DNA of 64,000 nucleotides from the NCBI GenBank assembly GCA_035516965.1, contig DATIZR010000064.1, forward strand, positions 6,724 through 70,723, read 5' to 3'. The DNA comes from Nitrospirota bacterium. GTDB lineage: Bacteria > Nitrospirota > UBA9217. Below the pieces are notes generated by a model, which worked only from the letters and a program-made list of their open reading frames with translations, made no database searches and was not told the origin of the DNA. The position numbers and the translations under genes are program-made. Of this stretch, positions 14,495 through 18,960 are shown in pieces (positions within the stretch are counted from its first letter, which is position 1; each line of letters starts with the position of its first letter).

Positions 14495-14803
14495 TTACCC
14501 GCAGCATCCTCCGGCACTGCCGCCGCTGCAGTCGCAGGTCGGCGGTCCGCCGTTGATAAGGCTGTTGATGATGGCCGAGGCGCAGCCGACGCCGGAGCTG
14601 ACCGTGATCGCGCCGAATTCGCAGTTCAGGGCGCAGGCCCCGCACTCCATGCAGAGGTCCCGGTCCAGGACCGCGGCCCGTTTGTCCCGCATGGCGAAGA
14701 CGCCGCGCGGGCAGACCTCGACGCACCTGCCGCAGCCGGCGCATTTGTCAGCGATATAATTGAGCGTTGTCACGTTCGCGAGGTATTTCACAGTACCCTC
14801 CAT
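14495..14803 (-). CDS. hgcB: Mercury methylation ferredoxin HgcB (2x[4Fe-4S] ferredoxin with a C-terminal Cys-rich tail)
   Basis: 102 aa with two CX2CX2CX3CP motifs (CAGCGRCVEVCP, CMECGACALNC) and the tail …PPTCDCSGGSAGGCCG ending in vicinal Cys. The ATG at 14803 overlaps the hgcA 3' end by 16 nt. Confidence 0.9.
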   Translation of the reverse strand: MEGTVKYLANVTTLNYIADKCAGCGRCVEVCPRGVFAMRDKRAAVLDRDLCMECGACALNCEFGAITVSSGVGCASAIINSLINGGPPTCDCSGGSAGGCCG

Positions 14804-15867
14804 TCCTGAAGCTTGTACAGCACCAAGAGGACGGCCGAAACGACTGCCGTGCCGAGATACACCGGGATGCCGATCTTCAGCTCCCGGTTCACGCCCGACA
14901 TGCCCGTGTAGGTCGTGGAGCCCGTGAACTGGAGCGCGATATAGGAGCTGAACGCGGGAAAAAGCAGGTAGGCGGCAGCGATTAGAAGCATGCTGCCGCG
15001 ATCGACGATGCCGAAGACCTGCATCGCGAGCAGGGCCATGGCCAGTCCCATGATCCACCCTTTGATCGCGAAGGACCGGAACGGAACGAAAGGAAGTAAG
15101 ACCGGCGTCACGAAGGCGCCTGCAAAGACCGCGATCAGGCCCATCACCAGGAACGGCAGGCCGCCAAACCACGCCTGCCTGAACAGAAGGCCCGTGGGCT
15201 CGAGCCCGAACAAGAGCAGCACGCCGGCCGCGAACCAGGGATACCTCTTCATCGCCGGATTGATCTCCATCGGTGTCAGGATGAGCCGGTCACTCATCGC
15301 GAACGTTATCGTTCCCATCTCCCTCGTCTTCTTATACCCGCCCCTGACATAGGCGGGAATGTCCCGGGCCTGCACCGGGCCGAAGGATACGCGAAAGCCC
15401 GTTCTTTGCTGGACCGCTGCCGCGCTCACACCGACCGCTCCGAGCTGGGGAAGGATGATACGACGGTGGTTCACGACGGAGTCGAGCTTCACTTCCGAGA
15501 TCTGTTTCACCAGCTCGTCCGTCCCGAAGGTCCCCTTGCCTGCCGCACACCACACATTGATGCTCTTCGTGTCGAGCACCAACACCCAGGCGTCCATGCC
15601 CCTGAGCGATTGCCTCAGGATATCGAAGGTCAGTTTGTAATTGGCGGTGACGAAGACGTCGGAACCCTTCGTCGGCCCTCCGATTGCGTACAAACCCGGA
15701 TGGACCGGATAGTTCATCCGGAACGCGCTCACCCGGCTCTTGATCATGCCCCAGTAGTCCGCGCGTACCCAGTCGGAAGAGACACGACTTACCATGCCAA
15801 CGGATGAATTGACGGTGCCCTTAACATAACCGGGCATTTCCTTCTTCACGAACTTCAATGTCTGCAT
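14788..15867 (-). CDS. hgcA: Mercury methylation corrinoid protein HgcA (CFeSP-like corrinoid-binding domain plus a C-terminal multi-TM domain)
   Basis: Contains the diagnostic cap-helix motif SINVWCAAGKGTFGTDELV, i.e. N(V/I)WCA(A/G)GK, with the strictly conserved Cys. The C-terminal approximately 150 aa form 4-5 hydrophobic helices. ATG at 15867 with AGAGGTGA upstream. Confidence 0.9.
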   Translation of the reverse strand: MQTLKFVKKEMPGYVKGTVNSSVGMVSRVSSDWVRADYWGMIKSRVSAFRMNYPVHPGLYAIGGPTKGSDVFVTANYKLTFDILRQSLRGMDAWVLVLDTKSINVWCAAGKGTFGTDELVKQISEVKLDSVVNHRRIILPQLGAVGVSAAAVQQRTGFRVSFGPVQARDIPAYVRGGYKKTREMGTITFAMSDRLILTPMEINPAMKRYPWFAAGVLLLFGLEPTGLLFRQAWFGGLPFLVMGLIAVFAGAFVTPVLLPFVPFRSFAIKGWIMGLAMALLAMQVFGIVDRGSMLLIAAAYLLFPAFSSYIALQFTGSTTYTGMSGVNRELKIGIPVYLGTAVVSAVLLVLYKLQEWRVL

Positions 15868-15902
15868 CGCTCACCTCTTTTTGTCGGAAAGTGATGTCTT
15901 TT

Positions 15903-16982
15903 TCATACGGGCTTTGATTCCCTGATCCTGCAATGCTCTACGATAAAATATTTTTTCTGGAAATACAGAGCAACGTTCACCAGGCCTATCAGGACAGGGA
16001 CCTCGACAAGCGGGCCGATGACCGCGGCAAATGCTGACCCCGAGTTAAGTCCAAAGACGGCGACGGCAACGGCAATGGCGAGCTCAAAGTTGTTGCTGGC
16101 AGCGGTAAATGACAGGGTGGCCGTCTTTTGATAGTCCGCCCCGATCTTCTTCCCCAGGTAGAACGACACCAGGAACATTGCCACAAAATAGATCAGGAGC
16201 GGAACCGCTATTCTTACAACATCGAGGGGAAGCCTGATGATGTAGTTGCCTTTCAGCGAGAACATTACGATGATCGTAAAAAGGAGAAATATCAGCGTCA
16301 GTGGGCTTATTTTGGGAATGAATGCCTGTTCGTACCATTGACGACCCTTGGCCCTCACCATGCTGAACCTTGTTGCCGATCCCGCGAGGAACGGAATGCC
16401 GAGGTAGATAAATACGCTCTCGGCGATCTGGCCGATTGAAACAGGTACGACCGCACCTTTCAGCCCGAGCCATGCAGGAAGGATCGTGATGAAGACATAC
16501 GCATATACGGAAAAGAACAGAACCTGGAATACCGAATTGAAAGCCACGAGGCCGGCGGCGTATTCCGTATCTCCGCATGCAAGGTCATTCCAGACGATGA
16601 CCATTGCGATGCAACGGGCCAGGCCGATCATGATAAGTCCAACCATGTATTCCGGATAATCGTGCAGAAAAATAACGGCCAGCAAAAACATCAGGATCGG
16701 ACCGATCACCCAGTTCTGCACGAGCGAAAGGGCAAGCACTTTCTTGTTCCTGAATACCTCCCCGAGCTCCTCATACTTTACTTTCGCCAGGGGCGGGTAC
16801 ATCATTAAAATGAGGCCGACTGCAATGGGAATATTGGTCGTCCCAATCTGAAAACGGTTGATAAGTTTTTCCATTGCGGGGATGAAATAGCCGAGACCGA
16901 CTCCCAGCGCCATTGCACTGAATATCCAGAGGGTCAGATACCTGTCCAGGAAAGAAAGTCTTTTAGCCGCTGTGTCGTTCAT
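15903..16982 (-). CDS. acr3: Arsenite efflux transporter, ACR3 family
   Basis: N-terminus [25 protein letters not shown] and 10 TM segments are typical of Acr3/ArsB-type (BART superfamily) permeases. 359 aa. Confidence 0.85.
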
Positions 16983-17010
16983 CGATTCCCTCTGGTCCTT
17001 AGACTATGAA

Positions 17011-17795: not shown

Positions 17796-18512
17796 TTACT
17801 TGCCTTGTCTCAGTTTCTCCGCGAAATAAATTGGCAGACCGCCCGCTGTGATAGCTGCTGCCGTTTTTTCGACATCGTACGGGACCCGGATGAAGTCCGT
17901 GGCCACCGAGTCCGGCGTGATCTCTAACACGGCAACACACGCGCGCGGGTCTCCGTCCTTCGGCTTGCCGACACTCCCGGCATTGATGAACATTTTCCCG
18001 TCGATGTCCTTGCGATAAGGCTTATGAGTATGGCCATAGATCAGGACGTCTGCGTCGGTTTTGTCGGACATCTCTTTGAAGAACTTTTCCGGCCGGTCCT
18101 CATACCAGTAGAGATTGTTCTTGCGCGGCGACGCATGAAAGAGGGAGACTTTTTTCCCGTCTGCAGTGAAGCTGATTTCCGTCGGAAGATGCTTCAAGAA
18201 CTCCTTCGTCCTCCCGGTTGCGTGCTTCTTTGTCCACTCAAACGAGAGCGTGGCCATCTGCTCCTGAACAGGGTCTTCATATTTGCATCCGCAGTGTTCA
18301 CGGTCATTCGCCACGGCCTCATCATAGTTACCCTGAACCCCGGCAATTCCATGATCGATCAGGAAGTCCGCAACCTCGTTTACAAAGGGGGCATATCCCC
18401 CAAGGTCCCCGAGGTGAAATATTTGATCCACGTTGATGCGGAGTACCTCTTCGTATGCGGCATTGAGGGCTTCACTGTTTCCGTGGATGTCTCCGAATAT
18501 AGCCAGCTTCAT
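17796..18512 (-). CDS. Calcineurin-like metallophosphoesterase (YfcE/MJ0936-like)
   Basis: Motifs MKLAIFGDIHGN… and DQIFHLGDLGGY (GDxHG / GDxxDRG-like metal-binding motifs). Its stop overlaps the arsR 3' end. Confidence 0.75.
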   Translation of the reverse strand: MKLAIFGDIHGNSEALNAAYEEVLRINVDQIFHLGDLGGYAPFVNEVADFLIDHGIAGVQGNYDEAVANDREHCGCKYEDPVQEQMATLSFEWTKKHATGRTKEFLKHLPTEISFTADGKKVSLFHASPRKNNLYWYEDRPEKFFKEMSDKTDADVLIYGHTHKPYRKDIDGKMFINAGSVGKPKDGDPRACVAVLEITPDSVATDFIRVPYDVEKTAAAITAGGLPIYFAEKLRQGK

Positions 18513-18515
18513 GCG

Positions 18516-18893
18516 TCATCTCCCGCAACAGGCTGCCTTCCCGCGCAGACTGGTGATGACCGCCTTTGCGGTTTTCTCCTTTTTAAACAGGGCTAGTCTT
18601 TTCTTATCTTCCTTCATTGCATCCTCTGAAATTCTCTCGATCACGCTCAGCATGAGGAGCCGCTTGAGCATATCCGAATCATTGAGGCGATAATGTATCC
18701 ACTTCCCCTGCTTCCTGTCTTGAATGAACCCCGCTTCTTTCAGCACACCAAGGTGAAAGGAAACCTTGGACTGTGCCATGGCAAGCGCGGCAACAATATC
18801 GCACACGCAAAGCTCGCCTTGCTCCAGCAGTTTTACGATCCGTAGCCGCGTCTCGTCAGATAGGGCCTTGAATAAAGAGACCAGGTCCTGCAT
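18516..18893 (-). CDS. arsR: ArsR/SmtB family metalloregulator with the As(III)-type ELCVCD metal site
   Basis: Helix-turn-helix region LFKALSDETRLRIVKLL…ELCVCDIVAAL…SKVSFHLGVLKEAGF. The Cys-x-Cys in helix 3 is typical of arsenite-responsive ArsR. Start at 18893 (MQDLV…) with GGAGGG 6 nt upstream. Confidence 0.85.
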   Translation of the reverse strand: MQDLVSLFKALSDETRLRIVKLLEQGELCVCDIVAALAMAQSKVSFHLGVLKEAGFIQDRKQGKWIHYRLNDSDMLKRLLMLSVIERISEDAMKEDKKRLALFKKEKTAKAVITSLRGKAACCGR

Positions 18894-18904
18894 GCGCCCT
18901 CCAC

Positions 18905-18960
18905 TTATCAAATCAAGCAATGTTGATATGTTAAATTAACGATCCCGAATTGTCAAGTAA
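18905..18960 (-). promoter_or_regulatory. Predicted sigma70-type promoter plus an ArsR-like dyad operator for the arsR-…-hgcAB gene string
   Basis: On the minus strand: TTGACA (18956-18951), a 17-nt spacer, TAACAT (18933-18928). The perfect inverted repeat ATCAA-cattgc-TTGAT (18927-18912) overlaps the predicted transcription start. Read directly from the sequence. Confidence 0.45.

Follow-up and report, generated by a model that had tools for sequence, protein, structure and literature searches.

We examined a 64,000-nucleotide stretch of a contig from a Nitrospirota bacterium (DATIZR010000064.1; the window), in which the mercury-methylation genes hgcA and hgcB lie at the distal end of a string of arsenic-resistance-type genes on the minus strand. 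A previous reading of the letters alone (the sequence-only reading) had given the order of this string as arsR, metallophosphoesterase (MPE), CDF-like transporter (CDFl), acr3, hgcA and hgcB. Using Pfam and NCBIfam/TIGR profile searches of the translations, scored against the model cut-offs, we recovered the same order and confirmed all six family assignments:

18516–18893, minus strand: arsR, encoding an ArsR/SmtB repressor of 125 amino acids (aa) (HTH_5, PF01022, 66 bits; NF033788, 104 bits against a cut-off of 55).
17796–18512, minus strand: the MPE gene (Metallophos_2, 101 bits; YfcE subfamily).
17011–17694, minus strand: the gene for CDFl, 227 aa (Pfam Cation_efflux, 41 bits against a cut-off of 26.6).
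15903–16982, minus strand: acr3, encoding an ACR3-family arsenite efflux permease (TIGR00832, 468 bits against a cut-off of 283).
14788–15867, minus strand: hgcA, encoding the corrinoid protein of mercury methylation (NF040863, 389 against a cut-off of 275, over residues 26–351).
14495–14791 with a GTG start (to 14803 with an ATG start), minus strand: hgcB, encoding a 2x[4Fe-4S] ferredoxin (NF040864, 120 against a cut-off of 99).

The six genes are closely spaced, and each is preceded by a Shine-Dalgarno sequence. The spacers of 101 nucleotides (nt) between MPE and CDFl, 28 nt between CDFl and acr3 and 35 nt between acr3 and hgcA agree with the sequence-only reading, but the 4-nt overlap it gave for arsR and MPE is in fact a 3-nt gap (TGA cgc ATG), the ATGA at that spot being out of frame. 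Its 16-nt overlap between hgcA and hgcB holds only for an ATG start of hgcB. The most likely start is instead GTG at 14791, which overlaps the hgcA stop codon by 4 nt (GTGA), because GGAGGG stands upstream, the NF040864 profile begins at residue 6 of the ATG version, and a homolog from another lineage (locus L165, described below) begins at the equivalent MKYL with an ATGA overlap. The protein motifs named in that reading were all present in the translations, namely CVC in ArsR, NVWCAAGK in HgcA, and two CX2CX2CX3C motifs with a CC tail in HgcB. We assigned hgcA on its equivalog hidden Markov model, the cap helix NVWCAAGK (residues 104–111, invariant in 17 homologs) and a C-terminal membrane domain, and hgcB on its place directly after hgcA, its two cluster motifs (CAGCGRCVEVC and CMECGACALNC) and its GGCCG tail.

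Upstream of arsR, a single strong promoter and a perfect dyad had been described, and both were returned by our scans, which used a sigma-70-type consensus only and counted matches at 10 or more of 12 positions as strong. A second dyad was found further upstream:

18928–18956, minus strand: P_ars, a sigma-70-type promoter, TTGACA-17-TAACAT, matching the consensus at 10/12 positions.
18912–18927: O1, operator candidate, a perfect dyad ATCAA-N6-TTGAT that abuts the -10 box and spans the predicted start site.
18986–19001: O2, operator candidate, a copy of the dyad with one mismatch, lying upstream of the -35 box by about 30 nt and 74 nt from O1.

P_ars was the best of six promoter-like matches in 13600–20400 and the sole strong match on the minus strand from 18960 to 14495. 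Strong matches number 11 in the whole window, and since most of them directly precede genes, this organism's promoters are apparently recognisable by the sigma-70 consensus. The arsR transcript would start near 18921, with a leader of about 28 nt that carries the Shine-Dalgarno sequence GGAGG. The exact O1 dyad, which can be extended to 9-nt arms at 18903–18931, occurs once in the window against 0.08 occurrences expected. With up to one mismatch allowed there are three matches, two of them in the P_ars region; the third (39103, one mismatch) sits between gene ends and was judged to be a chance match. The placement of O1 over the -10 box and start site is that of a repressor operator, and we infer that ArsR binds there.

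The layout of promoter plus dyad recurs in three other ars operons. Two operons from metagenomes (L123 and L088) have TTGACA-17-TAACAT or TAATAT followed by ATAAA-N6-TTGAT, identically placed with respect to the -10 box, and L165 has ATCAA-N6-TTTAT about 30 nt upstream of arsR. In addition, a Thermoleophilia metagenome-assembled genome (MAG; L017) carries two perfect dyads between arsR and a divergent MFS-ArsP-Usp-hgcA-hgcB string, with a dyad sequence (TCATATCAATATTGCTTGATAT) nearly identical to that of the window (ACATATCAACATTGCTTGATTT).

Within the string itself, no strong sigma-70 promoter was found on the minus strand between arsR and hgcB, the 35-nt acr3–hgcA gap included, and no terminator-like hairpin with a U-tract was predicted. 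A search of 13600–20500 against Rfam (E <= 1) gave no match. Both the 101-nt gap between MPE and CDFl (z 0.27) and the region after hgcB (z -0.73) fold no better than shuffled sequences, from which we concluded that neither contains an attenuator or terminator. Further downstream, the most likely end of the transcript is a predicted terminator:

14184–14215: a GC-rich hairpin with a 14-bp stem, between hgcB and a convergent open reading frame (ORF) of 69 aa.

This hairpin makes a good terminator on the plus strand and has a poor U-tract on the minus strand. The string thus runs on one strand with short gaps, has a single promoter, lacks an internal terminator and follows an order conserved elsewhere, and the comparative data given below back the structural core of the sequence-only reading, in which one ArsR-type promoter and operator heads a tight co-directional string ending in hgcAB. 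Judged from these features, it is moderately likely that the six genes form one operon under ArsR control.

ArsR contains ELCVCD, with Cys29-Val-Cys31 in helix alpha3, and Cys120/Cys121 at its C-terminus. Its gene starts at ATG 18893 rather than TTG 18920, the N-termini of homologs aligning at MQDL, and in an alignment of 13 homologs CVC is invariant and at least one C-terminal Cys is present in most. The MPE carries the motif HCGCK (His73-Cys74-Gly75-Cys76-Lys77), which is invariant in eight ars-linked homologs. In Rufibacter tibetensis, the protein Car1 is an MPE turned arsenate reductase in which Cys74 and Cys76 are essential (Shen et al., 2024, as cited in PMC12124457), and Car1 homologs directly follow arsR in the ars operons described in that source; Mucilaginibacter ars operons also contain MPE genes (PMC10652896). 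The MPE of the window shares the calcineurin-like MPE fold, the Cys74/Cys76 pair and the ars-operon location given for Car1, and, likened by motif and by the published description, it is probably a Car1-type arsenate reductase. Because it carries the Car1-type HCGCK, the ars part of the string resembles a complete As(V)/As(III) module.

Acr3 scores as an ACR3 equivalog, and its nearest homologs are 83–88% identical and mostly from Nitrospirota. Its translation includes LARCIAMV, which contains the RCIAM motif whose conserved Cys has a functional role in the ACR3 family. Related ars operons also carry ArsP, LMWP-ArsC and thioredoxins. Nitrospirota-type ars operons at L088 (7053–7586) and L085 (366–897) encode a 177-aa protein with a PF04060 iron-sulfur (FeS) domain, and the Cys motif of PF04060 also occurs in the large subunit of the corrinoid iron-sulfur protein, at its N-terminus.

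The fourth ars-linked protein, CDFl, consists of the transmembrane (TM) domain only and ends 20 residues past it, with no cytoplasmic domain. We call it CDF-like rather than a canonical CDF since it scores 40.8 against TIGR01297, below the cut-off of 82.35, and has no C-terminal ZT_dimer domain. Conserved residues are Cys157, Cys161 and Cys195, and the C-terminus carries CxCGG. The closest homologs of CDFl (78–85% identity) are encoded in ArsP-Trx-(FeS protein)-ArsR-CDFl-Acr3-Trx-MPE operons, where Trx is thioredoxin, and its distant homologs adjoin PHP phosphoesterase, YihY-like and Pit/PhoU-like genes rather than ars operons. The family is large, with more than 4700 homologs and 77–88% identity among the top 120 clusters. 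No hgcA was found beside close CDFl homologs among 80 metagenome loci. CDFl adjoins hgcAB in four other species loci (L015 6432–6902, L020 11347–12033, L030 12381–13037 and L081 95–763), and some hgcAB-linked CDFl loci lack arsR or acr3. We found no published account of a CDFl–hgcAB link.

A survey of the linkage between hgcAB and arsR or acr3 had been proposed in the sequence-only reading. We carried it out on the neighbourhoods of 80 species-representative hgcA loci, with metagenome contigs compared in addition, and the linkage was found: the gene next to hgcA on its upstream side belongs to the ArsR family in 15/80 loci, many with an alpha3 CxC, and Acr3 is encoded within 10 kb of hgcA in 13/80. 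By judgement, made without a control, the latter count greatly exceeds what a gene with one or two copies per genome would give. The exact six-gene string was not found among the 80 species-representative genomes, and a five-gene version without CDFl was met only in metagenome contigs. This version, arsR(125 aa)-MPE(238)-acr3(359)-hgcA(362)-hgcB(97), occurs in three JGI samples (L165–L167) from another lineage, with gaps of 3, 32, 53 and -4 nt and with identities to the window of 62% for ArsR, 73% for MPE, 85% for Acr3, 70% for HgcA and 70% for HgcB. G+C content at third codon positions (GC3) is uniform at about 0.60 throughout the L165 string.

Linkage also takes other forms. Another Nitrospirota locus (L012) reads MazE-like-hgcA-hgcB-ArsC-Acr3-MPE, L020 has hgcAB-CDFl, and about 12 loci with hgcAB-acr3 or acr3-hgcAB come from Bacteroidota, Fibrobacterota, Spirochaetota and Firmicutes. 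In the Thermoleophilia MAG (L017, 6509–11343), where the ArsP of the divergent MFS-ArsP-Usp-hgcA-hgcB string is split into two ORFs, arsR again heads a string with hgcAB at its end, independently and in another phylum. A further contig with a close Acr3 (P0030) was rejected as a linked case, hgcA and acr3 not being adjacent.

The most common upstream partner of hgcA among the Nitrospirota was of a different kind. A Cys-rich gene of about 90 aa with a MazE/SpoVT-AbrB domain lies directly upstream of hgcA in 18/80 loci, including most Nitrospirota, and looks like the default hgcA partner in bacterial Nitrospirota. It was seen at L003-L016, L020, L035, L038, L040, L044, L056, L067 and L170 and is absent from the window at 15868–15902. 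The protein (VDERGQMVLPKELR) has an N-terminal CC and an internal ICCI, and these Cys pairs suggest a metal- or redox-sensing regulator. A MazE/PrlF-like "TA gene" upstream of hgcA has been reported (PMC10349881), and the literature describes this gene mainly for archaea.

We next asked how the ars genes came to stand beside hgcA. Composition and comparison with relatives mark out one segment:

15777–19082: a foreign segment of 3.3 kb, absent from the related locus L082, of deviant composition and bounded by blastn breakpoints.

The segment contains the last 9 codons of the upstream EamA gene, P_ars, arsR, MPE, CDFl, acr3 and hgcA up to codon 30. GC3 is 0.63–0.65 in arsR, MPE, CDFl and acr3, against 0.80 in EamA, 0.80 in hgcA, 0.86 in hgcB and 0.86 in a nearby RACo gene. 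Within hgcA, GC3 is 0.60 for codons 1–30 versus 0.82 for the remainder (binomial P = 0.004). L082, which is 90–94% identical to the flanks of the window at the nt level, has EamA, about 300 nt and then hgcA-hgcB, with no ars genes, followed by the same 69-aa ORF and RACo gene as in the window. The points at which homology to L082 breaks off (19082 and 15777 in the window) coincide with the steps in GC3. A perfect TTGACA-17-TATAAT precedes hgcA at L082 735–763, in a stretch with several N bases and of uncertain sequence quality, and has no counterpart in the window. The HgcA of L082 has a longer, divergent N-terminus.

Since L082 is without the cassette and the foreign GC3 extends over hgcA codons 1–30, a single acquisition probably brought in the ars genes together with the 5' end of hgcA, and it was probably a recent one. 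A lower-GC donor block would have replaced the stretch from EamA to hgcA codon 30 by recombination, with one crossover inside hgcA, and the donor would already have had its ars genes fused to hgcA, as in L165. The order that looks ancestral in this Nitrospirota clade is that of L170, a 1.7-Mb contig, which reads FlK-EamA-(spermine synthase-like)-MazE-like-hgcA-hgcB...RACo. Taken together, these sequences indicate that the regulatory module before hgcA, be it a MazE/AbrB-like gene, an ArsR operon or a bare promoter, has been swapped by recombination within one clade.

GC3 changes sharply at either end of the segment, once within hgcA, and the stretch belongs to a 113.8-kb k141 metagenome contig, ena:ERZ27256617:k141_1790734. 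This would also be expected if the ars/hgcA join were a mis-assembly, a chimera of high-GC and lower-GC populations. We rejected this explanation on the strength of an independent 1791-nt contig from another sample (L172; JGI sample 3300033158), which is 99.8% identical to window positions 17278–15488 and runs from CDFl through acr3 to hgcA codon 126, crossing both the composition break and the acr3–hgcA junction. A chimera would moreover require two crossovers, and the same architecture is found in L165–L167. Mis-assembly is thus extremely improbable.

The explanation that we favour is an operon transcribed from P_ars, gated by ArsR and As(III), ending in hgcAB and owing its cassette to exchange, and we hold it as a whole with slightly more than moderate confidence. 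An ArsR dimer would bind O1 and block RNA polymerase, and would probably also bind the weaker upstream site O2. As(III), entering directly or arising from As(V) through the Cys74/Cys76 MPE, would bind to Cys29 and Cys31 and possibly also to a C-terminal Cys, whereupon ArsR would leave the DNA. The whole string would then be transcribed from P_ars, each gene being translated from its own Shine-Dalgarno sequence and hgcB being translationally coupled to hgcA through GTGA, and Acr3 would export As(III). With such derepression, HgcAB synthesis would take place chiefly in the presence of arsenic. The sequences show the gene identities and spacing, the promoter and dyad with their conservation, the difference from L082 and the break in composition; what we infer is that ArsR binds, that As(III) induces, that transcription reads through into hgcAB and which way the exchange ran. 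Arsenite is a plausible signal for hgcAB.

Several observations weigh against this explanation. The best PDB relatives of ArsR (Lmo1102, SmtB and CadC) are Cd/Zn sensors, and the protein has Cys29 and Cys31 but no counterpart of Cys37, the third Cys of the R773-type As(III) site (ELCVCD(L)C, with Cys32, Cys34 and Cys37). Against the E. coli-type model PRK10141 of NCBIfam it scores 93.8, short of the cut-off of 97. The dyad is imperfect in L123, L088 and L165, with ATAAA or TTTAT half-sites that make for a loose operator consensus. A weak or alternative-sigma promoter inside acr3 may drive hgcAB, the scan having covered the sigma-70 consensus. No terminator was predicted between EamA and arsR, so a promoter of the FlK-EamA genes (about 20628) might feed the string regardless of ArsR. 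Finally, most of the closest HgcA relatives are without any ars genes. The closest full-length ones (76–77% identity; L083, L084 and L171) have none, and hgcA is surrounded there by several genes for SAM-dependent methyltransferases, together with those for an ECF sigma factor and a MazE-like protein (L083/L084 7008–9259; L171 2018–5717 and 8446–9144).

The ArsR features above bear on whether the operon is real but its repressor senses another signal, such as Hg(II), Cd(II)/Pb(II), methylarsenite or S-adenosylhomocysteine (SAH), which hgcAB would then follow. An alpha3 CxC is common to CadC-type Cd/Pb sensors, the CDFl gene suggests a divalent-cation substrate, and ArsR2 of Pseudodesulfovibrio mercurii ND132 responds to SAH as well (10.1101/2022.10.17.512643). 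However, ArsR of the window begins one residue before helix 1 and so has no N-terminal Cys-bearing arm of the CadC type, and the literature states that Cys32 and Cys34 alone suffice for the As(III) response of R773 ArsR. The genes under its presumed control include an ACR3 permease above the equivalog cut-off and a Car1-type MPE, and the related operons add ArsP, LMWP-ArsC and thioredoxins. We therefore regard a different signal as decidedly unlikely.

The adjacency could also be an accident, in which a mobile ars cassette recently landed beside hgcA and hgcAB owes its expression to an internal promoter that escaped recognition or to read-through without regulation, with no adaptive link to arsenic. 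The foreign composition of the cassette and its absence from the closest relative, L082, fit this account, as does the finding that most related HgcA loci have a MazE/AbrB-like gene upstream in place of ars genes; furthermore, hgcAB transcript levels in ND132 predict methylation poorly (10.1101/2022.10.17.512643). Yet the same order recurs with uniform composition in the L165 lineage, whose HgcA is only 70% identical, fusions in other orders arose independently (L012, L017, L020 and the roughly 12 hgcAB-acr3 loci), and Acr3 lies near hgcA in the 13 species loci counted above. No promoter-like site was seen in or near the 35-nt acr3–hgcA gap. Because the 5' end of hgcA came with the exchanged block, the ars–hgcA junction would have pre-existed in the donor, which also argues against accident. 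We consider an accidental adjacency unlikely, if less so than a different signal, and retain the arsenic-gated operon as the better account.

A stronger proposal is that handling arsenic is a physiological function of HgcAB, mercury methylation being a side reaction; HgcAB might, for example, methylate As(III) or a thiol-bound metalloid in a corrinoid-dependent way before export. Such a role would follow from the en-bloc inheritance of arsR-car1-acr3-hgcAB, the varied gene orders across phyla and the As(III)-type repressor, and the Cys-rich TM-only CDFl might be part of the same pathway. We think both the role and this example of it very doubtful.

Other features of the window were noted. Convergent to hgcAB, at 11703–13637 on the plus strand, lies the gene for a RACo/AcsV-like corrinoid reductive activase with 2Fe-2S and ASKHA domains (NF040756, 721 bits, below the cut-off of 800), which could reactivate the corrinoid of HgcA. 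It is also present at L082 3091–3354, L170 11171–13093 and L171 14166–14438, 0.9–6 kb downstream of hgcAB in this Nitrospirota clade, and was not seen near hgcAB in the other 80 loci. The 69-aa ORF (13901–14110, plus strand), which is kept in L082, is Lys/Ala-rich and secreted-looking, with no Pfam match in the precomputed annotation. A low-GC3 island at 24500–35200 (0.49–0.61 versus about 0.8 elsewhere) was probably also acquired. It holds unrelated genes, which encode a CLC channel, two proteins with OmpA domains, a MarR regulator and a protein resembling class A beta-lactamases, and several ORFs without a Pfam match. At 50123–50477 on the minus strand there is a tmRNA gene, whose tag peptide is ANNELALAA, and no tRNA genes were found in the window.

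How well methylmercury production can be predicted is limited by what is understood of the native function and regulation of hgcAB. The window offers a natural test case, in which an arsenic-type repressor and operator, an As(V)/As(III) module and hgcAB stand on an apparent single transcript, and populations of the L082 type, with hgcAB behind a consensus promoter and no ars genes, provide the contrast. Where the two kinds of population live together, metatranscriptomes could reveal directly whether hgcAB expression is gated by arsenic.

The link between arsenic and hgcAB, through ArsR control and ars genes beside hgcAB, was already published between 2020 and 2025, and the window is a clean new example of it, not its discovery. 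An arsR-like gene of P. mercurii ND132 and P. hydrargyri BerOc1 shares a transcript with hgcAB and regulates it (Goni-Urriza 2020; Gionfriddo et al., 10.1101/2022.10.17.512643), and the Pseudodesulfovibrio ArsR/hgcAB system responds to arsenic and SAH (10.1101/2022.10.17.512643; AEM 2023). A possible evolutionary link between ars operons and hgcAB has been discussed, including Nitrospira-group MAGs with ArsR and ars genes (10.1101/2022.10.17.512643), and the idea of HgcAB as a metal(loid) methyltransferase recruited into detoxification regulons is an existing hypothesis (10.1101/2022.10.17.512643; McDaniel et al., PMC7438021). Genes for acr3, arsC, arsM and arsR flank hgcAB in diverse MAGs of several phyla (McDaniel et al., 2020; PMC7438021, Fig. 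6). In a lake metatranscriptome, arsR-like genes before hgcA go with lower hgcA expression, and acr3/arsC were noted in arsR-hgcA neighbourhoods (Peterson et al., 2025; PMC11984097).

Set beside these neighbourhoods (PMC7438021, PMC11984097, PMC10349881), the linkage in our 80-locus survey is similar; in their neighbourhood drawings we found no description of the promoter and operator, the MPE reductase, the CDFl gene or relatives with and without the cassette. The MazE/PrlF/AbrB-like gene (PMC10349881) is an alternative putative regulator at the same position, and in the window the ars cassette takes its place. The published Car1-type ars operons resemble the window in having the MPE directly after arsR and the Cys74/Cys76 pair, and differ in their host phyla and in containing no hgcAB. 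Classical ars operons (R773 arsRDABC, arsR-acr3-arsC) share with it the autoregulated repressor gene in first place, the dyad over the promoter, the permease and reductase that follow, and ELCVCD, whereas in the window a Car1-type MPE replaces ArsC, Cys37 is missing, a TM-only CDFl is added and hgcAB stands at the distal end. A close parallel, arsR2-hgcAB of ND132 and BerOc1, likewise has an ArsR/SmtB gene upstream of hgcAB, and there regulation and the response to arsenic were shown by experiment. In ND132, however, the regulator adjoins hgcA with no other ars gene nearby, while three ars-type genes separate the two in the window, and ArsR2 has a four-Cys site outside helix alpha3 and responds to SAH, whereas the repressor of the window has the classical alpha3 CVC. 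Unlike the ND132 paradigm, moreover, the module in the window is demonstrably exchangeable.

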